A DNA stretch of 64,000 bases from an uncultured bacterium (GTDB taxonomy: Bacteria; Patescibacteriota; Minisyncoccia; Phycocordibacterales; GWA1-40-21), in assembly GCA_903831305.1 (NCBI GenBank), contig CAIKXE010000005.1, forward strand, positions 11,288 to 75,287, in the 5' to 3' direction. This document shows positions 4,323 through 50,319 of this stretch, one piece after another (the stretch's first letter is position 1; each line of letters begins with the position of its first letter). The notes under the pieces were generated by a model that was not told the DNA's origin, did no database searches, and saw nothing but the letters and a program-made list of their open reading frames with translations. A program made the position numbers and the translations under genes.

Positions 4323-5426
4323 ATGCCGAAAAAAGTAGATAAAACATTTTTAATTTCGTTTTTTGCCCTACTCATCAGTGGCTTGGTGATTTTTATTTCT
4401 GCCTCGCTCGGTATTTATGCCCGGGACAATGCCAAGTTTACTTCTATCATCTTTAGTCAAATTTTCATCGGACTTTTTATGGGGCTTATTGCTTGCTTTA
4501 TCGTTTCCAAAATCAATTATAGGTACTGGCGTAAATTTTCCTTTTATATTTTCTTATTGTCAGTTGGCGCCACCCTCTTGGTCTTTATCCCAGGTGTTGG
4601 TGTTTCCCACGGTGGAGCTACTCGCTGGATTTATATTGGTAATATGTCTTTCCAACCATTAGAGCTTCTGAAAATTGGCTACATTATTTATTGGGCAGCG
4701 TGGATCGGTGAGGTAAAAGAGAGAATCCAAACTATTCGTTGGGGGCTTTTACCTTTTATGATTATTACCGGTATCGTCGGTGTGGTACTACTCTTACAGC
4801 CAGACACGGATTCATTTGTTATTATTTTTTCAGTCGGCTTGGGTATGTATCTGGTAGGGGGTGGTAAGTGGCGTCATATCTTTTCCATTATCATTATCGG
4901 CTTCATCGGTGTCTCCGCGCTCTTTTTTATGCGTCCATACTTACTGGACCGGTTGATGACCTTTATCAACCCGGCTGATAATCCACTCACCTCTGGTTAT
5001 CAGATCCAGCAGTCACTCATCGCCGTGGGTTCCGGTGAATTATTTGGCCGAGGCTTGGGCCAAAGCATCCAGAAATTTAAATATCTGCCAGAGTCCATCG
5101 GTGACGCCATCTTTCCCATTGCGGCTGAGGAGTTTGGCTTTATTGGGGGTATTATTATTATTTTTCTCTTTCTTTTTTTTATTTCTCAAGGGCTCAAAAT
5201 CGGCGGGGGAGCACCAGACTCATTTAGTGGACTTTTAGTCATCGGAATTGCTATACTTATAACCATCCAGTCATTTATAAACATTGCCTCAATGATTGGC
5301 GTCATACCGCTTTCAGGCTCACCTTTGATCTTCTTTAGCCAGGGGGGGACTGCCTTGTTTTTTACCTTGGCGGAAATAGGTATGATTATAAATGTATCCA
5401 GAAGTAAAAAATTATTAACTAGCTAA
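4323..5426 (+). CDS. ftsW: SEDS-family peptidoglycan glycosyltransferase FtsW/RodA
   Basis: Roughly ten TM helices. IAVGSGELFGRGLGQSIQKFKYLPESIGDAIFPIAAEEFGFIGG is the conserved SEDS periplasmic loop. Confidence 0.85.
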   Translation: MPKKVDKTFLISFFALLISGLVIFISASLGIYARDNAKFTSIIFSQIFIGLFMGLIACFIVSKINYRYWRKFSFYIFLLSVGATLLVFIPGVGVSHGGATRWIYIGNMSFQPLELLKIGYIIYWAAWIGEVKERIQTIRWGLLPFMIITGIVGVVLLLQPDTDSFVIIFSVGLGMYLVGGGKWRHIFSIIIIGFIGVSALFFMRPYLLDRLMTFINPADNPLTSGYQIQQSLIAVGSGELFGRGLGQSIQKFKYLPESIGDAIFPIAAEEFGFIGGIIIIFLFLFFISQGLKIGGGAPDSFSGLLVIGIAILITIQSFINIASMIGVIPLSGSPLIFFSQGGTALFFTLAEIGMIINVSRSKKLLTS

Positions 5427-16358: not shown

Positions 16359-16365
16359 ACAGTGA

Positions 16366-16400
16366 ACCGCCAAGCCCCGAAGAGCTTGGCGGTGGTTTGT
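16366..16400 (+). terminator. Intrinsic terminator downstream of cysS
   Basis: ACCGCCAAGC-cccgaagag-GCTTGGCGGT followed by ggtttgtatt. Confidence 0.65.
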
Positions 16401-16401
16401 A

Positions 16402-30377: not shown

Positions 30378-32354
30378 ATGCCCAACCGAAAAAAGCCGGT
30401 ATCTAACATGAAACCCAAAGCAGGCCCTAATAAAGCCATAACGGGTATTTTAAGCGTAAATGCCCGCGGAATAGGCTATTTGAAGTCTATAATCAAGGAT
30501 AAAGAAGATCTGGAAATCCAGAATAGTAATTTAAATACGGGACTAAACGGTGACACAGTGTTAGTACTTCCTCTACCCGGAAGAGGCGGTGAGAGACCGG
30601 CCGGAAAAGTGATCAGCGTGGAGAAAAGAGCCAAGCGCGCTTTTGCTGGGATTTTACAAAAAGAAAATGATACCTACTATCTATTACCCGATGATAAAAA
30701 AATGTATGCGGATATTGTGATTTCTAAAGATAATGTGATTGCCCAAAAAGCCGAGGTTGGCAAAAAAATTCTAGTCAAAATCAATCAGTGGAACAAGGGA
30801 GCGAATCCGGAAGGATCTATTGTCCAGGTGCTAGGCCAGGCCGGTGAGCATAATACGGAGATGGAATCTATCCTCTATGAAAAGGGTTTTGAGATAGGCT
30901 TTTCTGAACGGGTAGAAGCCGAGGCCCAAAAGCTGGAAAAAACTGAGAAGCCCATCCCTCAAGCGGAGATTGCCAAGAGGCGCGACTTTAGAAATACCAC
31001 CACCTTTACCATTGACCCCAAGGATGCTAAAGACTTTGATGATGCCATCTCCATAAAAAACTTGCCAAATGGTAACTTTGAGATTGGCGTGCATATTGCC
31101 GATGTGTCACATTATGTCCGGGAGCGCACCGCCCTTGATGATGAGGCAATCAAACGAGAATTCTCCGTCTATCTGGTGGACCGCACTATCCCCATGCTTC
31201 CGGAAGTCCTCTCTAATGATATTTGTAGCCTTAACCCCGGTGAAGAGAAGCTCACTTTTTCCGCCGTTTTTGAGATGACCATGAGTGGCAAAATAATCTC
31301 CCGCTGGTTTGGTAAGACGATTATAAAATCAGATAAGCGGTTTACTTATGAGCTGGCGCAAGAAGTACTAAATACTGGCAAGGGTGAATTTTTTGATAAT
31401 TTAAAGACTTTAGACACTATTGCTAAAAAGCTAAGAGCTGAAAAGACGATCAATGGTGCAATAGACTTTGAGCAAGATGAGATTGCTTTTGAACTAGATA
31501 AGACGGGCAAGCCGATCCGTATTTATAAAAAGCAGAGACTGGATACACATAAACTAGTAGAGGAATATATGCTTCATGCTAATAAGGAAGTAGCGGAATT
31601 TATCTATAAGGCTTATAAGCGGACAAATTCTGATAGTCCATTTATTTACCGTATTCATGATTTGCCTGATAATGAAAAGATCCAAGCTTTAAGTATTTTT
31701 GTTAAAGCCCTCGGTTATGAACTACCCATCAAAAAAGGTAAAGGTATAACCGCCCTAGATTTACAGAACTTATTTAAACAAATTGAGGGTAAAGCCGAAG
31801 AGTCCATGATTAAAACAGCGGCGGTGCGCTCTATGGCCAAAGCCATTTATTCTACAAAAAATATTGGTCACTTTGGACTAGCTTTTGAATTTTATACTCA
31901 CTTTACTTCCCCCATCAGACGGTATCCTGACCTCCTGGTGCACCGCCTACTCCAAAAGCATTTGAAGGATGAAAAGCTGCCCAAGAGCGAGTGGATTAAA
32001 TATGAAAAGATCTCTGCTCTAGCCACCGAGAAAGAAATCAAAGCGGCCGAAGCCGAGCGAGATTCTAAAAAATATAAGCAGATTGAATTTATGAAGGATA
32101 AGGTGGGTCAAGTGTTTGATGGTACTATCACCGGCGTCACCGAGTGGGGTATTTATGTGGAGGAAAAGGAAACCCGCGCTGAAGGGATGGTGAAGATCCG
32201 TGACTTGGGTAGTGACTATTATGTTTTAGATCAAAAAAACTATTGTGTGATAGGCCAGAAAACCAAAAAGAAATTTAGCCTAGGTGATCAAATCAAATTT
32301 AAAATCATTTCGGCTGATTTAGAAAAAAGAGCGATAGATTGTCTCCTAGTATAA
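30378..32354 (+). CDS. rnr: Ribonuclease R (RNB-family 3'-5' exoribonuclease, VacB)
   Basis: N-terminal cold-shock/OB domains; RNB motifs RRDFRNTTTFTIDPKDAKDFDDAISI and HFGLAFEFYTHFTSPIRRYPDLLVHR; C-terminal S1 domain. Confidence 0.85.
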   Translation: MPNRKKPVSNMKPKAGPNKAITGILSVNARGIGYLKSIIKDKEDLEIQNSNLNTGLNGDTVLVLPLPGRGGERPAGKVISVEKRAKRAFAGILQKENDTYYLLPDDKKMYADIVISKDNVIAQKAEVGKKILVKINQWNKGANPEGSIVQVLGQAGEHNTEMESILYEKGFEIGFSERVEAEAQKLEKTEKPIPQAEIAKRRDFRNTTTFTIDPKDAKDFDDAISIKNLPNGNFEIGVHIADVSHYVRERTALDDEAIKREFSVYLVDRTIPMLPEVLSNDICSLNPGEEKLTFSAVFEMTMSGKIISRWFGKTIIKSDKRFTYELAQEVLNTGKGEFFDNLKTLDTIAKKLRAEKTINGAIDFEQDEIAFELDKTGKPIRIYKKQRLDTHKLVEEYMLHANKEVAEFIYKAYKRTNSDSPFIYRIHDLPDNEKIQALSIFVKALGYELPIKKGKGITALDLQNLFKQIEGKAEESMIKTAAVRSMAKAIYSTKNIGHFGLAFEFYTHFTSPIRRYPDLLVHRLLQKHLKDEKLPKSEWIKYEKISALATEKEIKAAEAERDSKKYKQIEFMKDKVGQVFDGTITGVTEWGIYVEEKETRAEGMVKIRDLGSDYYVLDQKNYCVIGQKTKKKFSLGDQIKFKIISADLEKRAIDCLLV

Positions 32355-41893: not shown

Positions 41894-44800
41894 TTAATAA
41901 ATCTCACCACGTAAACGACGCCAAATAAAGAAAACAAACCAGCCCAAAAATAAGAGCCCCGTAAAATCAATCACATACCACCATTTGCCTAAACCACTAT
42001 TCTCAATCACGACAAATGGAGCGCTCGGTGCCGGTGGATTTTCACTAGGAATAATAGTTACTTCATTTTTATTCTTAATAGGATTTGGCTCCACTGTTTC
42101 TCCTGTCCCTGGTATGACCTTGGCTGGTGTTTCAATATTCTTGGTTGGTGAAATAACATCGGTCCTAGGTACAGTGATTAATACTGGGGCCGGGGCCAAC
42201 GGTATATTTACCACTGGACTGACCGGTACCAAAACCGGCTGGTAACCACGACTACCAGTGGTGTTTGACACTCTAGTGACGGGCAAAGTAGCCGAGGTAT
42301 TATTGACTCCGCTTCGGCCCAAGGCGTTCACCGCACTAATCCTAAAATCATAACTCACATTATTTGTCAGCCCGGTTATAGTAACGGTAGTGACCACGGA
42401 CACCCCATCCGCAAAGATTGTCCACACCGCTGGTTCACTCGTCAGCTTATATTCAATCACATAATCCGTGATATCTAATCCCCCATCATCAGCTGGAGCC
42501 AGCCAAGACAAAACGACACTCGTATTCCCCGCCACCGCCGTTACGCCACTTGGGACATCCGGCACAGAAACCGGTGTCACCGAGTTTGAAGGTGGAGAGG
42601 AAGATAATCCGGTGCCGATAATATTAGTGGCGGTCATGGTGAAGGTATAGGCGGTGCCATTCGTCAGCCCGGTCACTACAATCGGCGTAGTCAGTCCGGT
42701 CCCCGTCAAACCGCCAGGGCTAGAAGTGACAGTATAATTGGTAATAGCGGTTCCACCATTGGAAGCGGGAGCGGTGAATGAAATTGTAGCCTCAGCATTA
42801 CCGGCCACGGCTGAGACCCCTGTTGGTGGATCCGGGAAGGTGGCCACGGCCGTAAAGGATGAAAAAGCATACGATGATTGCGAACCATACAAGACACTGA
42901 TATGAAAATAATATTCCCCCGGAGTCAGTACGGTAGAGGTAGCCGTAAAGTCATAATTTTCATGCGAATCAATAAGTTTGGCATTAGAAGCACCAAAAAC
43001 ATCATTCCCTCCTCCACACAGATTATCCACGGCATCCGTCACACACCAAGTATATTGATATTCATATTCCACCAAACCTTCATTGGTAATTCGAATATTT
43101 GTACCGATACTGGAGTTAGTCAAATCAGGAAAACCTTGAATAAAAACTTGGGCCGGTTCACCAGGCGTGGCACTGACCGAATCACTCACCGTACTAGTAC
43201 CAATAATATTTTTAGCACTGACCCGGAAATCATATGACGTACCGTTAGACAATCCGATCACATTGGCAAACTTATCCACGCTTTCTCCATCATCAAATGC
43301 CACCCAGCTACCGCCCGTCGTCAGCTCATACTCAATAACATAATCTGTAATAGCACTCCCGCCCGTGGAAGCCGGGTCAGACCAAGTCAAATCAATACGG
43401 CTACCTTTTACCACGGCAGCGAGATTAAGGGGGGCGCTAGGCGCCGTTGGCAAAGTGATAGCGGAGGAAGGATCAGAAGCCAGGCCGTCCCCCACATCAT
43501 TTACAGCTATCACGGTGAAAGTATAAGTGCCTCCATTGGTCAGACCAGTCATAATATGAGAAAGACCCGTTGAACTAGCATTAGAATCCGTCCCACCATT
43601 ATTGGAATAAACAGTATAGCCGGTAATGGCACTACCACCAGTGGATAAAGGCGCAGAGAAAGTTACCGTGGCCTGGGCATTACCCGCCACGGCCGTAACT
43701 CCGGTGGCCTTACCCGGCACGGTGGCTGGTGTCACGGGATTTGACGAAGTAGAAACCGGTCCATCACCAGCCACATTGGTCGCTTTCACCGTAAAAGTGT
43801 ACTCAGTACCATTGGTCAGTCCACTGATAATAATCGGCGAGGCACTACCAGTCTGAATAATTGCTTGTGGATCAGAGGTGACCGTATAGCCAGTGATTAT
43901 AGAACCACCGTCAGAAATAGGAGCCGTAAAACCAACCGTCACCTGACCATTGCCGCGTAAAACACTGGTGATGACCGGCTGACCGGGGACAGTCCTTGGC
44001 GTGCTACTTACGGGTGGATCACTTGGTGCTCCTGTCCCCGCGGAGTTATAGGCCGAAACTCGGAAGTCATATAGAGAACCATTTACCAGATCCACAACCG
44101 TAATTGTGATGGCTGGTGAGGCCGGATGACCAAACTGTGTCCAGCTTTCAGCTGTGTGCAGTTTATATTCAATAACATAATTACTAATTTCCGCCCCATT
44201 ATTGGCGGGGGCTGTCCAAGATAAATCTGCCGAGGCATTGCCTGGTGTGGCCGTAAGTCCAGAAGGGATTCCCGGCACTCCCGCCGGCGTCACCGGGCTC
44301 GAAGATACTGAGGTTTCCGAAGTACCCACCACATTGGTGGCCGTCATGGTAAAAGTATAGGGCGTGCCATTGGTCAAACCAGTCACAATGACCGGTGAAG
44401 TACTGCTTGAGCTGACAATTGATTCTGGGTCTGAGGTAACCGTATAATTGATAATTTCACTTCCCCCGTTTGTCGCCGAGTTACTTACATTCTCCTCCCC
44501 CGCCACTGCATAAAATGTCGCCGGTGAGCTTTGGTTATTATATTCGGTTTTAATCCAGTCCGCTGTACGGACAGTATTAGTTATGCGAACTTCATCGATA
44601 ATGCCGTCAAAATATCTCTCAAACGTTGCAACGTCTTGGACTCCGATTTCAAGCTTATGTGTGTGATCAGGAAGACTTCCTGAACGAGGTGTGGTGTCTA
44701 CTAATAGACCATTTTTATACAGACGTGCATTGGTACCATCATAGGTAACAACAAAATATGCTAAAACGTCTTGTGTGAGCTGACCAGCTACTGTAATCCC

Positions 44801-47800
44801 ATTTAAAACCGTGTCATCGACATCATAAACGATGCTCGTGCCAGAAGTTTGTAGCGTGTAGCCTCCGCTAGTACTGTATCCATTTTTTCCAACAATGGTG
44901 TCTCGATTAGACGCAGTGACATCATGTGGGCTTACCCAGGAGCCAAAAGTAAGCGCGGTTCCCGTGACCACTTCAGCATCACCAATGTCTATATATTTAC
45001 TGGATCCATTAAAACTCCCAGCCCCATTAATTTTTCCTGAGCTCGTTGCTGTTACTCCATGATTCGTTCCGTTATTTACACCCGTCGAATCAACCGAATT
45101 GGTCGGATCGGCCAAATGCCAAACACCTTTGAAATAACTACTACCACCATCATCCCACACTTTTTGTGAGCCGTAAGCCGAGCTTGGCGATGGCTCTGAA
45201 GTTGCCGAAGAGTTACCATAATACATATATATATCTGTATTGGCTGAAGTAGAAAGCACTGGCACTTTGACCCACGCCACCAGCGTGCCAGCTGAATATG
45301 ATTCTATTTCTCTAGCTAATTCTGTAGTGCCATTTGAATCCGTAAACCTAATATCGGTACCGTTAGCATTTATATTTGAGAGACCGGTGAGCGACACCAA
45401 AACCGGAAAATTTGTCTGATTAGTATTCGGCACCTTTGTCTTATCAATCGTAATCTTTTTTCGGTAAAGCCAAGCTTGGTTATACCACACCCCAGCAGAG
45501 GAAACGGTAGGATACGGCAGTGGTGTAAAATTCACTGTCACCTGCCGGTCACCACTTACCGCGCTAGTGATAACCGGCTTTCCGGGAATTGTTTTTGGTG
45601 TACTATTTACTAGTGGTGAACTGGGGCTTCCACTACCCACCGCATTTCTGGCCGTAATTCTAAAATCATAAGACGTACCATTGATTAATCCTGAAATTAC
45701 TGTGGCCGTAATCACGGGTGTCTCTGGGTCAGAATAAATCTGCCAGCTGGCCGGTATGTCAGAAGCGCTGGTAAGTTTGTATTCAATAATATAATCCGTA
45801 ATAGCACTGCCACCATTTGAGGCCGGTGCGGACCATAAAACAGACACTTGTCTATCTCCCGCCGTTGGTGTTACGGCTGTTGGCGCTCCAGGTACAGTGG
45901 CGGGTGTAACGCTGTTTGAAGCCGACGATGCTGGTCCCGTACCCATCACATTGGTGGCTGTCACCGTGAAAGTATAAGGGGTACCATTCGTCAGTCCAGT
46001 GACAATAATCGGTGAGGTGGTGCTGGCGCTGGTAAAACCCCCGGGGCTAGAAGTGACCGTATAAGCGGTAATCGCACTTCCCCCATTAGTGGCTGAATTT
46101 GCCACATTTTCTACTCCCGCCACCGCATAAAATGTCCCCGGCGAGCTTTGGTTATTGTATTCAGTTTTAATCCAATCCGCCGAGCGGGCGGTGTTAGATA
46201 TTTTCACTTCGTCGATGGAGCCATTGAAATAATATGAAGCAATACCTCCTATATTTAAATCAGAAGTAGTTCCTGAAAAATTACTTGCTCCGGATTTATT
46301 TGTCCATAAAACTCCATCAAGATAAATATTCATTGAATTATTTATAGAACTTGAAGTAAGAGTATAATAATGCCAGTTATTATCTGCGCAGTTTGAAGGA
46401 TTTGATTTAGATAATCTTCCATTAACAGCTGCATTACCAAAATCCCAATAAGTATTACCATTAGAATAACACGGATGAAAATTCATACGATTATTAAAAT
46501 TATCTGGATTAAGGATTAATGCAGCTTGTTGAGAAGTTTTATTCATCTTTAACCATATACCTATTGTTATTTCTGAAACTGGAGCAACATTTCCAAAGTT
46601 AGATATTTTAACATAATTCCCCGTTCCATTAAAACTCCCAGCCCCAGCGATTTGCCCTGAAGAAGTTGCTGTTACTCCATTATTCGTTCCATTATTCACT
46701 CCAGTGGAATCAGTACTTGTGGAAGCTCCCGCATTTGCCAAATGCCACACGCCTTTAAAATAATTACTCCCGCCATCATCCCAGACTTTTTGTGAACCAT
46801 AAGTCGAGCTGGGTGAAGGTTCTGAAGTTTGTGACGAGTTCCCATAATACATATAAATATCTGTATTGGCCGAAGTGGAAAGTGTAGGTACTTTTACCCA
46901 AGCCACCAGTGTACCCGCCGAATATGATTCTATTTCTCTAGCTAATTCTGTAGTTCCTGTTGAATCAGTAAATCTAATGTCTGTACCGTTAGCGTTTATA
47001 TTTGAGAGACCAGCGAGCGAGACCAAAACCGGGAAATTAGTTTGATTAGTATTCGGCACCTTTGTTTTATCTATTGTTATCTTCTTTCTATACGTCCAAC
47101 TATTGTTATACCACGGTGCAACGGAAGGGCTAGGTAGCAGGGTAAATGACACGCTAGCCTGCGCATTCCCCGCCGTCGCCGTACCAATAGTCGGCGCTCC
47201 CGGAATGGTGGCGGGTGTAGCCGTCACGGTGGCGCTCGCACTACCTTGACCAAGGGCGTTCACCGCGGACACACGGAAGTCATATGAAGTTCCATTGACC
47301 AAACCGATAATCGTAAAAGTGGTGGTGGTAGAAACCCCATCGGCATAAGTACTCCAGGTGGAAGTGGAATTTAATTTATAATCAATCACATAGTCCGTCA
47401 GTGCCAAGCCCCCGGTATTCCCCGGTGCCGTCCACAATAAACCTATTTGTGTATTCCCCGCCGTCGGCGTTAGTCCCGTCGGCGCATCCGGCACCGTCGC
47501 TGCTTCTTCTGTTGCGGATATCGCAAATGTCCCCGGCGAACTTTGATTATTGTATTCTGTCTTTATCCAATCCGCGGATCGGGCAACGCTAGAGATACGG
47601 GATTCATCAACTAGACCCAGAAAATCATAACCATTATTACTCGCGATTCTACCGATTCTTCTATAGTTATTTTTTAAATTTGCACTATTATAAGTTTCAC
47701 TTACTTTAATTACTCCATTAACGTAAAGTACGGAAGAATTTGAAGAATTATATGTCAGAACCACATGTGACCAACTACCTAATGTAGTAACTCCTGAACC

Positions 47801-48712
47801 ATAGTTCCTACCATAAAATCCTCCACCAATTGAATTTGAGGTCCCTACTTGTGCACCCTGAACTGTTCCAATATATGCCGATTGATTAGGTGATGAATCA
47901 CCAATAGATATAGCGCCAGAATATTTACTAACCGTAGCTGTATTAATCCATGCACTTAATGTAAACGAACTTGCACCAAGTATTGAATTGATTCCTGTGT
48001 CAATGTAATCCCCATCATTGGCAAAAGCAGCACCAGCAATTTGTCCTGACGAAGTTGCAGTTACACCATTATTCGTCCCATTGTTTCCATTACTTGTAGA
48101 ATCTGTGCTAGTTGAATTACCAGCATCAGACAAATGCCACACGCCTTTAAAATAATTACTTCCGCCATCGTCCCAAACCCCCGTAGCGACCGAGGTGGCG
48201 GGAGTGGAGGCCGAGGCGTTTCCATAATACATATAGATATCGGTGTCGGTCGTGGTAGCTAGTGAAGGTATCTTTACCCAAGACACCAGCTCACCAGTGG
48301 ATGACGCATATTTTTCTATCTCATAATTCAGGGCTGTCGTGCCATCAGCGGAAGTAAACAAAATATCCGCCCCGGTGCTCGTCCCCACATGCCCACCAGA
48401 AAATGAAGTGTATTTCAAAGCGGTGGTCGTCGTACTCACCAGCACCGGAAAATTAGTCAAAAGCGTCCCCGTAGAGCTAGCCACCTTAGTATGATCAATA
48501 GTAATTTTAGTTCGGTAACCCCATGCATCATTATACCAGCCAGTTTCCGCATACACCGTACTTATCTGCGTACCCAAAAAAGTAATTATAAGGAAAACAA
48601 ATACGCCACAAACTCTGTAAAGTCCTCTCTCCGCCACAGTCTTGTTTTTTTTATTAAAATTAAAAAACCAAACATGCATTACGGTTTTATTATACCATAT
48701 CTCCCCACCCAA
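41894..48712 (-). CDS. Giant (2272 aa) modular cell-surface protein: signal peptide, 3x [DUF2341-like beta-sandwich + LamG/concanavalin-like + tandem fibronectin type III], further FN3 repeats, C-terminal TM anchor
   Basis: The motif W..W.YRKKITID..KV...NFPVLVS occurs three times (DUF2341-like). DEVRISNTARSADWIKTEYNNQSSPGTF is a LamG-like jelly-roll C-terminus. There are many ~90-aa FN3-like repeats with conserved W, Y and TNG.SY.F.V.A.N positions. The C-terminus is LGWFVFFIWRRL. Confidence 0.8.
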   Translation of the reverse strand: MGGEIWYNKTVMHVWFFNFNKKNKTVAERGLYRVCGVFVFLIITFLGTQISTVYAETGWYNDAWGYRTKITIDHTKVASSTGTLLTNFPVLVSTTTTALKYTSFSGGHVGTSTGADILFTSADGTTALNYEIEKYASSTGELVSWVKIPSLATTTDTDIYMYYGNASASTPATSVATGVWDDGGSNYFKGVWHLSDAGNSTSTDSTSNGNNGTNNGVTATSSGQIAGAAFANDGDYIDTGINSILGASSFTLSAWINTATVSKYSGAISIGDSSPNQSAYIGTVQGAQVGTSNSIGGGFYGRNYGSGVTTLGSWSHVVLTYNSSNSSVLYVNGVIKVSETYNSANLKNNYRRIGRIASNNGYDFLGLVDESRISSVARSADWIKTEYNNQSSPGTFAISATEEAATVPDAPTGLTPTAGNTQIGLLWTAPGNTGGLALTDYVIDYKLNSTSTWSTYADGVSTTTTFTIIGLVNGTSYDFRVSAVNALGQGSASATVTATPATIPGAPTIGTATAGNAQASVSFTLLPSPSVAPWYNNSWTYRKKITIDKTKVPNTNQTNFPVLVSLAGLSNINANGTDIRFTDSTGTTELAREIESYSAGTLVAWVKVPTLSTSANTDIYMYYGNSSQTSEPSPSSTYGSQKVWDDGGSNYFKGVWHLANAGASTSTDSTGVNNGTNNGVTATSSGQIAGAGSFNGTGNYVKISNFGNVAPVSEITIGIWLKMNKTSQQAALILNPDNFNNRMNFHPCYSNGNTYWDFGNAAVNGRLSKSNPSNCADNNWHYYTLTSSSINNSMNIYLDGVLWTNKSGASNFSGTTSDLNIGGIASYYFNGSIDEVKISNTARSADWIKTEYNNQSSPGTFYAVAGVENVANSATNGGSAITAYTVTSSPGGFTSASTTSPIIVTGLTNGTPYTFTVTATNVMGTGPASSASNSVTPATVPGAPTAVTPTAGDRQVSVLWSAPASNGGSAITDYIIEYKLTSASDIPASWQIYSDPETPVITATVISGLINGTSYDFRITARNAVGSGSPSSPLVNSTPKTIPGKPVITSAVSGDRQVTVNFTPLPYPTVSSAGVWYNQAWLYRKKITIDKTKVPNTNQTNFPVLVSLTGLSNINANGTDIRFTDSNGTTELAREIESYSAGTLVAWVKVPVLSTSANTDIYMYYGNSSATSEPSPSSAYGSQKVWDDGGSSYFKGVWHLADPTNSVDSTGVNNGTNHGVTATSSGKINGAGSFNGSSKYIDIGDAEVVTGTALTFGSWVSPHDVTASNRDTIVGKNGYSTSGGYTLQTSGTSIVYDVDDTVLNGITVAGQLTQDVLAYFVVTYDGTNARLYKNGLLVDTTPRSGSLPDHTHKLEIGVQDVATFERYFDGIIDEVRITNTVRTADWIKTEYNNQSSPATFYAVAGEENVSNSATNGGSEIINYTVTSDPESIVSSSSTSPVIVTGLTNGTPYTFTMTATNVVGTSETSVSSSPVTPAGVPGIPSGLTATPGNASADLSWTAPANNGAEISNYVIEYKLHTAESWTQFGHPASPAITITVVDLVNGSLYDFRVSAYNSAGTGAPSDPPVSSTPRTVPGQPVITSVLRGNGQVTVGFTAPISDGGSIITGYTVTSDPQAIIQTGSASPIIISGLTNGTEYTFTVKATNVAGDGPVSTSSNPVTPATVPGKATGVTAVAGNAQATVTFSAPLSTGGSAITGYTVYSNNGGTDSNASSTGLSHIMTGLTNGGTYTFTVIAVNDVGDGLASDPSSAITLPTAPSAPLNLAAVVKGSRIDLTWSDPASTGGSAITDYVIEYELTTGGSWVAFDDGESVDKFANVIGLSNGTSYDFRVSAKNIIGTSTVSDSVSATPGEPAQVFIQGFPDLTNSSIGTNIRITNEGLVEYEYQYTWCVTDAVDNLCGGGNDVFGASNAKLIDSHENYDFTATSTVLTPGEYYFHISVLYGSQSSYAFSSFTAVATFPDPPTGVSAVAGNAEATISFTAPASNGGTAITNYTVTSSPGGLTGTGLTTPIVVTGLTNGTAYTFTMTATNIIGTGLSSSPPSNSVTPVSVPDVPSGVTAVAGNTSVVLSWLAPADDGGLDITDYVIEYKLTSEPAVWTIFADGVSVVTTVTITGLTNNVSYDFRISAVNALGRSGVNNTSATLPVTRVSNTTGSRGYQPVLVPVSPVVNIPLAPAPVLITVPRTDVISPTKNIETPAKVIPGTGETVEPNPIKNKNEVTIIPSENPPAPSAPFVVIENSGLGKWWYVIDFTGLLFLGWFVFFIWRRLRGEIY

Positions 48713-48849
48713 AAACCACTAATTTTATACTTTTACTATTTAAACTATTATTTATATTTATTATCTATCGCAACCACTTTAATTTTGTTAAATTTTAGAT
48801 ACCTACTTTAAAATGTCTTCTAAAAATATCAGAAATGTCTTTAAAATAT

Positions 48850-49055
48850 CTGATTAATTAATACCAATTGATATCAATTAATATCAATTGGTAATAATTG
48901 GTATTAATCAATTACATTATCTCTCTGTACACTCACGGACGGCCGTCAACGAGTGTACAGCAATGATAAATACCCAAAATAAACTTTTCTATCAATTACA
49001 TTATTTCTCTATACACATCTGAACGGCCGTCAACAAGTGTACACCAGTTTAATTA
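48850..49055. repeat. Cluster of palindromic/direct repeats 3' of the wHTH-Cas2-like gene
   Basis: Near-palindrome TACCAATTGATATCAATTAATATCAATTGGTA. Two ~60-nt direct copies ATCAATTACATTAT(C/T)TCTCT(G/A)TACAC...(C/T)GAACGGCCGTCAAC(G/A)AGTGTACA(G/C)CA sit at 48905-48965 and 48992-49052. A related site GGACGGCCGTCCACAATTGTACAG lies 5' of the gene at 49567-49592. Confidence 0.6.
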
Positions 49056-49062
49056 AGCTTTT

Positions 49063-49548
49063 CTATTTTACTATTTCTTTTTTCTTGACCGTAAAAATCC
49101 TAATCATATCTGCAATCCCCAGATCCCGCAGTCGATGAAGAAAATCCAGTGGCAGAGGTCCAGGACCAAACCACAAGCTTTGTTGTAAAATACTATAGTT
49201 AAATATTTTCAGCTGGTTACGAAGCCAGGACCTGGCCTTTCTATTATTTTCCGGAATATCAAAAGCGACCAAGGTATTCTTCACGGCATGTATTCCGAAA
49301 GGACAAGTAATATATTGCGAACCCATCCTCGCTATTTCCCTTCTGCCGCGATTAGTAATACTCCAACCGACTGCACCCTTACTCACATATTGCTTTTTAT
49401 GTAAACGAGAAAGGGTGGTGCCTAGGCTTCCTTCATCTATATCCGCTAATGATTCAGCTTGCATTAGCTTTTTATAAGTCGCCGTATTACGACCGCTCAT
49501 CAAAAAAGCTAAAATAAAATGTGTAATACTATTTTGTCTTATTCCCAT
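49063..49548 (-). CDS. Winged-HTH + Cas2-like (VapD/Cas2 ferredoxin-fold) domain protein; solo, with no cas1 or CRISPR array
   Basis: N-terminal wHTH-like region (LGTTLSRLHKKQYVSKGAVGWSITNRGRRE). The C-terminal NTLVAFDIPENNRKARSWLRNQLKIFNYSILQQSLW...DMIRIFTV follows the Cas2 pattern (V.YDI...R..L...L...G...QNSVF...DSVRIY). Confidence 0.4.
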   Translation of the reverse strand: MGIRQNSITHFILAFLMSGRNTATYKKLMQAESLADIDEGSLGTTLSRLHKKQYVSKGAVGWSITNRGRREIARMGSQYITCPFGIHAVKNTLVAFDIPENNRKARSWLRNQLKIFNYSILQQSLWFGPGPLPLDFLHRLRDLGIADMIRIFTVKKKEIVK

Positions 49549-49617
49549 ACCTACTATTTTAACATAGTTGGACGGCCGTCCACAATTGTACAGAAGAGAG
49601 GATTGTATTTTAGTCCC

Positions 49618-50319
49618 TTAAATAATATGATTTCCCCCCTTCTTCCACTCGTCAATTTTAGCATGATTACCAGACAGAAGGACAGGTGGAACTTTATATT
49701 TTTTACCTTTATAGACCAGCACTTCAGGCCGAGTATACAGCTCCGAACTTGAAACTCGGCTCTCCTCCAGGGAATTAAAATCACCAAGCACCCCGGGAAT
49801 CTGCCGAGCTAAACAATCCGCCATAATCATGGCTGGCAATTCCCCACCGGTCAGCACAAAAGGACCAATGGAAATATCTTCCGCTTTAAATATCTTTTTT
49901 ACTCGCGCATCTACCCCCTCATACCGACCACAAATAATAATAATATCCGTATACTTCTTCACTGCTTCTTTAGCATAAGCGGTATCAAACTGTTTGCCGG
50001 CGGGACTCAAGAAGATAACTTTGGGCTTTTTGCTCTTCCCTTTTTTCAAGGCTGACTCCACAGCCTTGATCAATGGCAAGGCCTGCATCACCATCCCCGG
50101 GCCTCCACCATAAGGCTTGTCATCCACCCGTAAATAAGGCTTGGCGTCGGCTTTACCCACCTTCGCTCTTCTGGCAGAAGCTTTGGTTGGGCGCGCATAA
50201 TCCCGTGGATTATAAAAAATAAACTTGATCTTTTTCTCCTTTTGCGCCCGCGCCAAAATGGACTCACTGATATATGAGGCAAACATTTCCGGAAATAATG
50301 TAATAATATGAAAATTCAT
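49618..50319 (-). CDS. trmD: tRNA (guanine37-N1)-methyltransferase TrmD
   Basis: MNFHIITLFPEMF..., YGGGPGMVM and the SPOUT knot region (GYEGVD). Confidence 0.85.
   Translation of the reverse strand: MNFHIITLFPEMFASYISESILARAQKEKKIKFIFYNPRDYARPTKASARRAKVGKADAKPYLRVDDKPYGGGPGMVMQALPLIKAVESALKKGKSKKPKVIFLSPAGKQFDTAYAKEAVKKYTDIIIICGRYEGVDARVKKIFKAEDISIGPFVLTGGELPAMIMADCLARQIPGVLGDFNSLEESRVSSSELYTRPEVLVYKGKKYKVPPVLLSGNHAKIDEWKKGGNHII

Follow-up and report, generated by a model that had tools for sequence, protein, structure and literature searches.

What is a small, solitary gene doing among elaborate palindromic repeats in the genome of an uncultured bacterium? The question is raised by a 161-aa open reading frame (ORF) at 49063..49548 on the minus strand of a stretch of 64,000 nucleotides from contig CAIKXE010000005.1, assigned to the Patescibacteriota. 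This 64 kb stretch is referred to here as the window. The ORF, first proposed from the letters alone, is present and is the single real gene of its region. The original prediction left three options for its product: an autoregulated DNA-binding regulator, a degenerate toxin of the VapD/Cas2 type, or part of a mobile-element boundary. Profile and structure comparisons identify the protein as a shortened PaaX-type regulator, called mini-PaaX below. The first option is favoured by a promoter that lies within the upstream repeat, by the family-wide pairing of gene and sites, and by the co-variation of site and protein.

The Pfam profile PaaX_M (PF20803, 'PaaX protein central Cas2-like domain') matches residues 92-157 of the protein with 45.2 bits against a cut-off of 24 (E 1e-11). 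An AlphaFold2 model built with 35 homologs (mean pLDDT 77) contains a winged helix at residues ~8-64, made up of three helices and a two-strand wing, followed by a linker helix at 66-76 and a β-α-β-β-α-β fold at 90-153. The combination of a winged helix with a Cas2/VapD-like ferredoxin fold, originally read from residue patterns, is thus borne out by Pfam, by the model and by its comparison with the PDB using Foldseek. In that comparison E. coli PaaX (8a39) and Rv0674 (3kfw) ranked highest over the full length, with probability 1.0. Many Cas2 chains (probability 0.9-1.0) and VapD ranked next, over the C-terminal domain only. Rv0674, an uncharacterised PaaX-like protein of M. tuberculosis, is the second-best full-length match (E 8e-3, query-normalised TM score 0.51) and has the same domain order, but it is 234 aa long and has extra C-terminal structure. 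By sequence the winged helix gave weak matches only, to the PadR and Stf76 winged helices. PDB sequence searches that used either the family profile or only the C-terminal domain retrieved neither PaaX nor Cas2. The kinship with PaaX and Cas2 therefore follows from the Pfam profile and the fold comparison only.

PaaX itself, the repressor of phenylacetate catabolism in E. coli and Pseudomonas (8a39, 3l09), has the same winged helix followed by a Cas2-like central domain. At ~305-316 aa it is about double the length of mini-PaaX, which fails the TIGR02277 PaaX equivalog model (20.8 bits versus a cut-off of 264.55). No match to PaaX_C was found, and the protein ends directly after PaaX_M, without a C-terminal effector domain. 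Unlike PaaX, mini-PaaX would therefore not sense phenylacetyl-CoA. Its hosts are bacteria of the candidate phyla radiation (CPR), and its neighbours are not paa catabolic genes: in the window they are trmD, ATP synthase genes and a giant surface protein, and in other family loci recG, ftsH, tRNA genes, L11 and others, with no paa association.

More than 180 homologs of ~150-230 aa (mostly ~160) were collected, and all those listed carry PF20803. They come from CPR/Patescibacteria metagenome-assembled genomes (MAGs) labelled Paceibacterota, Nomurabacteria, Taylorbacteria and Minisyncoccia. An exhaustive profile search returned 3042 cluster representatives (50% identity) at E<=1e-3 and 1136 at E<=1e-10. 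A second family copy was absent from the window and from every locus examined. The C-terminal domain is the best conserved part (FDIPE..R..R.WLRNQ.KIF.Y..LQQSLW.GPGPLP), and the winged helix is more variable. Residues D97, R103, R106, W108, R110, Q112, Q122, S124 and W126, the GPxPLP loop and the linker residue Y79 are invariant in the family alignment. This pattern suggests a conserved interface or ligand beyond plain dimerisation. The Asp of the first Cas2-like strand (FDIPE) is likewise invariant across the alignment. This motif and the ferredoxin-like β-α-β-β-α-β fold are common to mini-PaaX and Cas2/VapD, but in mini-PaaX the domain is fused to a DNA-binding domain. The Cas2-like domain of PaaX is reportedly used for dimerisation, and that of mini-PaaX would presumably serve the same purpose.

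The repeats around the gene resolve into three copies (S1, S2 and S3) of a 34-38 nt imperfect palindrome with the pattern TGTACA-N7-ACGGCCGT-N7-TGTACA, all at the mini-PaaX gene. The slightly shorter pattern GTACA-N7-ACGGCCGT-N7-TGTAC is matched at 48927-48958 (0 mismatches), 49011-49042 (1 mismatch) and 49560-49591 (2 mismatches). The rest of the 64 kb has no match to this nested palindrome, with shuffles giving an expectation of 0.00. Five occurrences of the core ACGGCCGT were counted in the window compared with 0.35 expected, and three of the five are those in S1, S2 and S3. S1, the predicted primary operator, lies upstream of the gene at 49557..49594 (minus strand; TCTGTACAATTGTGGACGGCCGTCCAACTATGTTAAAA in gene orientation). 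S2, the predicted auxiliary operator, is at 49008..49045 (minus strand), 18-55 nt after the stop codon. It has the same orientation as S1 and represents the family-typical 3' site; by hand alignment it is identical to its L004 counterpart at 29/38 positions. S3 (48924..48961, minus strand), the best palindrome among them, is an additional copy that arose by tandem duplication of 84 nt and has no equivalent in the other loci examined. The two direct repeats of about 60 nt noticed originally are 56 nt long (48907-48962 and 48991-49046), 84% identical and 84 nt apart from start to start. Each joins a conserved flank to one of the sites, S3 in the first and S2 in the second, and the third related site that had been placed 5' of the gene is S1.

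S1 coincides with the promoter of the gene. An extended -10 element, TGTTAAAAT, lies at 49556..49564 (minus strand), 7 nt before the ATG. It starts at -16, overlaps S1 by 8 nt and forms the promoter-proximal arm of S1. Because TGTTAAAAT is located at -16 within this arm, S1 spans the core promoter and would stay untranscribed. The mini-PaaX mRNA is predicted to be leaderless, and the genome itself appears largely leaderless: an extended -10 (TGnTAnAAT) is located 15-16 nt before the ATG at many first genes of the window (for example at 904, 7934, 11850, 30378 and 36892), and a Shine-Dalgarno-like motif was found in only 3/50 window genes. The same arrangement recurs across the family. In 38/45 family loci an extended -10 is present at -15 to -17 within the proximal arm of the locus's own site, and a Shine-Dalgarno-like motif precedes the gene in 1/45.

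A site on each side of the gene is also a property of the family. The comparison comprised 39 genome loci, contigs of close homologs and three distant members. Almost all family loci have a 5' site of ~38 bp whose centre is ~26 nt upstream of the ATG, and a 3' site that lies 0-25 nt past the stop codon and often overlaps it. Over 42 loci, an average of 21.1/26 nt agree between the 5' and 3' flanks of one gene, compared with 16.6/26 between flanks of different loci and 14.6/26 for shuffles. The 5'/3' match is above the 99th percentile of the shuffles in 36/42 loci, and the three distant members each carry a site pair of their own. The major site type has the consensus TGTTATCACTTTTAGACGGCCGTCAAATATGATAACAT. 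With their asymmetric spacers and usually identical orientation, the two copies are direct repeats of an imperfect palindrome. Exceptions are few. L026, L031 and L041 have no 3' site, and that of L033 and L034 is of a different centre type. In L034 the 3' site (at 1415) has the centre ACGGCCGT of the paralog L030 from the same MAG, GW2011_GWB1_43_19, rather than the locus's own type CACAGGTG, which suggests cross-talk or cross-regulation between the paralogs.

Site sequence co-varies with paralog. One MAG encodes three paralogs (L022, L023 and L040) whose sites have the centres CCGTACGG, CCTATCGG and TCAGCTGA; the arms differ too, and each of the three genes has matching copies of its own site at either end. 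The residue after LSRL in the recognition helix is mostly His in loci of the CGGCCG type and never His in the seven loci of the CACCTGTG type, a correlation that is a hint only because the loci are phylogenetically related. Between related loci the upstream site is identical at 30-33/38 positions and third codon positions at ~45-58%. For S1 the values are 30-31/38 against orthologous sites and 52-58% for third codon positions. The 60 nt after the stop codon, which include the 3' site, are identical at 40-44/60 positions in Nomurabacteria-type pairs, and far flanks mostly at ~40-55%. Conservation of the sites overall is 76-87%. Because the sites are more conserved than third codon positions and far flanks, these alignments indicate that both are under selection.

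Together these observations make it fairly probable that mini-PaaX is an autorepressor with a leaderless promoter built into its primary operator, S1, and with S2 and S3 as further cognate sites, most simply auxiliary operators. We infer that a mini-PaaX dimer binds the long imperfect palindrome. Since S1 holds the extended -10 of the predicted leaderless gene, protein on S1 would exclude RNA polymerase and set its own level by negative autoregulation. S2, duplicated as S3, would most likely be an auxiliary operator that raises occupancy of the promoter; a DNA loop of ~530-550 bp around the mini-PaaX gene is a possible means. The sites would be recognised as double-stranded DNA, because the spacers are mostly asymmetric and S1 and S2 form no better RNA hairpins than shuffles (z -1.1 and 0.05, respectively). 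S3 (z -4.2) and an AT-rich palindrome described below (z -5.5) are the only good hairpins. PaaX is reported to bind TGATTC-N27-GAATCA and to repress its own promoter through steric hindrance of RNA polymerase (PMC9493321); a long-span palindrome and autorepression thus each have a precedent. The operators of both proteins are long-span palindromes, the present one being TGTACA-N22-TGTACA with a conserved centre. Unlike PaaX, mini-PaaX has a second predicted cognate site immediately past its own stop codon.

Sites at other genes are consistent with a regulator. Scanning metagenomes for sites of the major type yielded 24 loci. In 9 of these a mini-PaaX gene lies between two sites, and the remaining 15/24 have lone sites with no family gene within the locus. 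These orphan sites represent ~9 distinct contexts: the upstream side of a yebC-like gene, divergent regions including one before def, a position before rpsT, three convergent-gene junctions, one intragenic position and one that is unclear. In L050 (3729-3766; also in L065 and L067) the orphan site lies 4 nt after the ruvB stop codon and 13 nt before the ATG of the yebC-like gene, placing an arm, TGATAACAT, at -16 of that gene. By its geometry this site appears to be the leaderless yebC promoter. Such related sites in promoter position at other genes favour the autorepressor, and mini-PaaX proteins probably control small regulons in which some sites are not at promoters. Repeats occurring independently of the gene had been named as a point against the original prediction. 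In the window they are confined to the gene, but related sites do occur in other genomes without an adjacent family gene; because the protein is a regulator, we read these orphan sites as its regulon and not as a refutation.

Several points weigh against autorepression through operators on both sides. The support comes from sequence throughout, mini-PaaX has no recognisable sensor domain, and the 3' operator has no obvious job. In L006, L007, L012, L020 and L035 a classical hairpin terminator stands downstream of the 3' site, so that the site separates it from the stop codon. The centre-to-centre distances range over 522-572 bp with no helical phasing, and looping requires a tetramer, of which we know no example in the mini-PaaX family. 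LacI (O1/O2), GalR (OE/OI) and DeoR also combine a promoter operator with a second site a few hundred bp off, within or beyond the regulated gene; mini-PaaX differs from these looping repressors in that its second site lies beyond the stop codon, so that the whole regulator gene is enclosed, and in showing no phasing signal. Of the distinct orphan sites, 3/9 occupy convergent-gene junctions, which have no promoter. Finally, three loci contain within-locus copies that are near-identical over the exact length of the site and have unrelated flanks. In L009 (2214-2251) a HAD phosphatase gene, and in L032 (2118-2155) a membrane protein gene, separates recG from mini-PaaX and is itself flanked by two sites, whereas related genomes have the order recG, site, mini-PaaX. 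The extra copy resembles the promoter copy across the site length only. This looks like insertion at a site, or site duplication. In L042 an extra copy of the 3' site (5211-5244; 33/34 identical) is found beyond a PIF1-like helicase gene. It is absent from the syntenic L029 (~5135-5180), and the flanks are unrelated. The pattern in L032, L009 and L042 looks like copying rather than ordinary operator evolution, and suggests that sites are sometimes copied as discrete ~37-nt modules.

The placement of the 3' site could have another explanation with the same pairing of protein and site. The bound protein may act as an insulator that blocks RNA polymerase arriving from a convergent neighbour, or it may silence weak promoters in the palindrome arms (TGATAACAT) that would otherwise yield antisense RNA. 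The downstream neighbour is convergent in 33/39 loci, the gap is often just 40-70 nt and is occupied by the site, and the three orphan sites in convergent junctions fit as well. Arms of the TGATAACAT type are plausible promoters, because the one at -16 of the yebC-like gene has the exact leaderless geometry. However, the downstream gene in the window is co-directional, S2 and S3 have no TGnTAnnnT element, and an ordinary hairpin terminator just past the site in several loci would make a roadblock redundant. The convergent bias may also partly mirror shared synteny. We therefore consider the insulator and its antisense variant, taken together, to be unlikely.

A different role for the protein is raised by the within-locus copies. 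The sites could be DNA-processing or recombination modules with the protein as their dedicated factor, like REP/RAYT elements (REPtrons) or integron cassettes, a reading that we regard as quite improbable. The sites would then be self-propagating or recombinogenic beyond any operator role, and the Cas2-fold domain with its invariant Asp would process DNA there, a proposal to which we attach equally little weight. If true, this would account for the bracketing by direct repeats, for copies of site length at new positions and for the different genes found between sites beside the regulator gene. The mini-PaaX gene does lie between two direct-orientation copies that often overlap its stop codon, and the order recG, site, mini-PaaX, site recurs in at least 8 loci, besides the site-bracketed inserted genes of L009 and L032 and the extra copy in L042. 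The homology of the window with L071, L004 and L072 is limited to the site-gene-site unit, and their neighbourhoods differ. REP/RAYT and integron attC systems likewise have a small gene flanked by 30-40 nt imperfect palindromes, further intergenic copies including some in convergent junctions, and occasional site-bracketed genes. In contrast to these systems, no HUH/Tyr transposase or integrase is present here, copy number is very low (3 in the 64 kb of the window, 1-3 per 4-15 kb locus elsewhere), and the 5' copy is a functional-looking promoter. The protein has no HUH motif, no Y1/HUH hit, no recombinase or integrase signature and no conserved His pair, and nothing points to recent transposition, since paralogs ~40% identical have distinct sites. 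Between orthologs the 5' and 3' sites are stably conserved and retain their individual differences across six related genomes, which argues for purifying selection and not turnover. Gene loss and gain could also result from ordinary homologous recombination between direct repeats. The mobile-element boundary proposed originally is not supported as worded, since viral contigs contain no relatives and plasmids no DNA match. Site-length copies at new positions do, however, exist.

It is very improbable that the protein is a degenerate Cas2/VapD nuclease, either a solo toxin or a remnant of CRISPR adaptation, with the palindromes as unrelated terminators: weak Cas2 profile matches span residues 92-128 and Cas2 and VapD are among the Foldseek matches to the C-terminal domain, but every Cas2 model falls below threshold (PF09827, 13.5 versus 23.8 bits; TIGR01573, 20 versus 24.5) with PaaX_M well above its own, the winged helix is conserved, the sites co-vary with the protein, S1 and S2 are poor hairpins, and no conserved antitoxin-like or cas neighbour is present in >40 loci. 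PADLOC yielded sub-threshold Cas2 hits only (20 bits, over the first strand and helix), which gives a defence or toxin role no support. No CRISPR-like array was found in the 64 kb window, in agreement with the absence of an array noted originally. No cas domains were among the Pfam calls for the neighbours examined; the window ORFs were not all screened for cas1. A small adjacent antitoxin gene is not conserved either: neighbours vary over the >40 loci, and the gaps are filled by sites. The protein is not Cas2 and not a VapD toxin, as the toxin option would have it, and no link to CRISPR was found.

Two further candidates for the palindromes were rejected. An RNA element received no support from Rfam, which had no match in 48400-49800 at E<=1, and S1 is upstream of the predicted transcription start. 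A model of hairpins in the 5' and 3' untranslated regions was discarded because S1 and S2 fold like shuffles. A consensus scan found no terminator after the gene. The 3' site is not simply a terminator, because several homologous loci have a hairpin beyond it too. Terminators elsewhere in this genome are GC-rich hairpins; one (CCGCCAAGC...GCTTGGCGG) at 16359-16401 occupies the 44-nt gap between convergent genes and is probably a bidirectional terminator.

On its upstream side the mini-PaaX gene adjoins trmD (49618..50319). On its downstream side a 380-bp spacer, which is unusually long, separates it from a co-directional giant gene (41894..48679, minus strand), identified from the ORF list and Pfam as encoding a secreted or surface protein of ~2261 aa. 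Its modules, counted separately by Pfam, are three DUF2341, three LamG and at least 10 FN3. The probable start is the ATG at 48679, as opposed to the TTG at 48712 in the ORF list. Metagenome contig L069, from the same organism, stops where the giant gene begins. An extended -10, TGGTATAAT, is located at 48689..48697 (minus strand), 9 nt before the probable ATG, with the same geometry as at other window genes. S2 and S3 lie ~230-350 bp upstream of this element, and the giant gene is a possible second target of the regulator.

The spacer contains other repeats, positioned between the 3' sites and the giant gene's promoter. The near-perfect 32-nt palindrome of the original prediction, TACCAATTGATATCAATTAATATCAATTGGTA, is at 48862-48893 and is self-complementary at 30/32 positions, with 0 such palindromes expected. 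It is contained in an AT-rich array at ~48855-48908 that has a 10-bp period (AATTGATATC x 5.3) and no comparable copy elsewhere in the window. The array is probably curved DNA or a binding array for another protein and, together with S2 and S3, may also influence the giant gene's promoter. A 22-nt tandem repeat (1.9 copies) occupies 48811..48850 in the same long intergenic region. Two unrelated observations were made in the window. ARAGORN found no tRNA gene in the entire 64 kb, and a 33-nt tandem repeat (1.9 copies) is present at 31556-31619, within a 658-aa ORF at 30378-32354.

To our knowledge, CPR/Patescibacteria have very few recognisable transcription factors, and gene regulation in these organisms is almost wholly uncharted. 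A literature search of incomplete coverage found no paper tying PaaX-like proteins to CPR bacteria or to Cas2, and an earlier description is possible. The domain family is known, but the shortened architecture and the operator arrangement were not found described. In the AlphaFold2 model a Cas2 fold would be the core of a minimal two-domain repressor. A conserved predicted operator past the stop codon is an unusual design, for which looping, insulation or site copying may be the explanation. Because family members carry their predicted cognate site on both sides of the gene, predicted pairs of regulator and operator, together with small regulons, may be read directly from the metagenomes of organisms that cannot be cultivated. 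The family also delivers a promoter architecture for these bacteria: an extended -10 at -15/-16 of a leaderless gene that has no Shine-Dalgarno sequence. Finally, the many divergent pairs of protein and site could serve as orthogonal parts.

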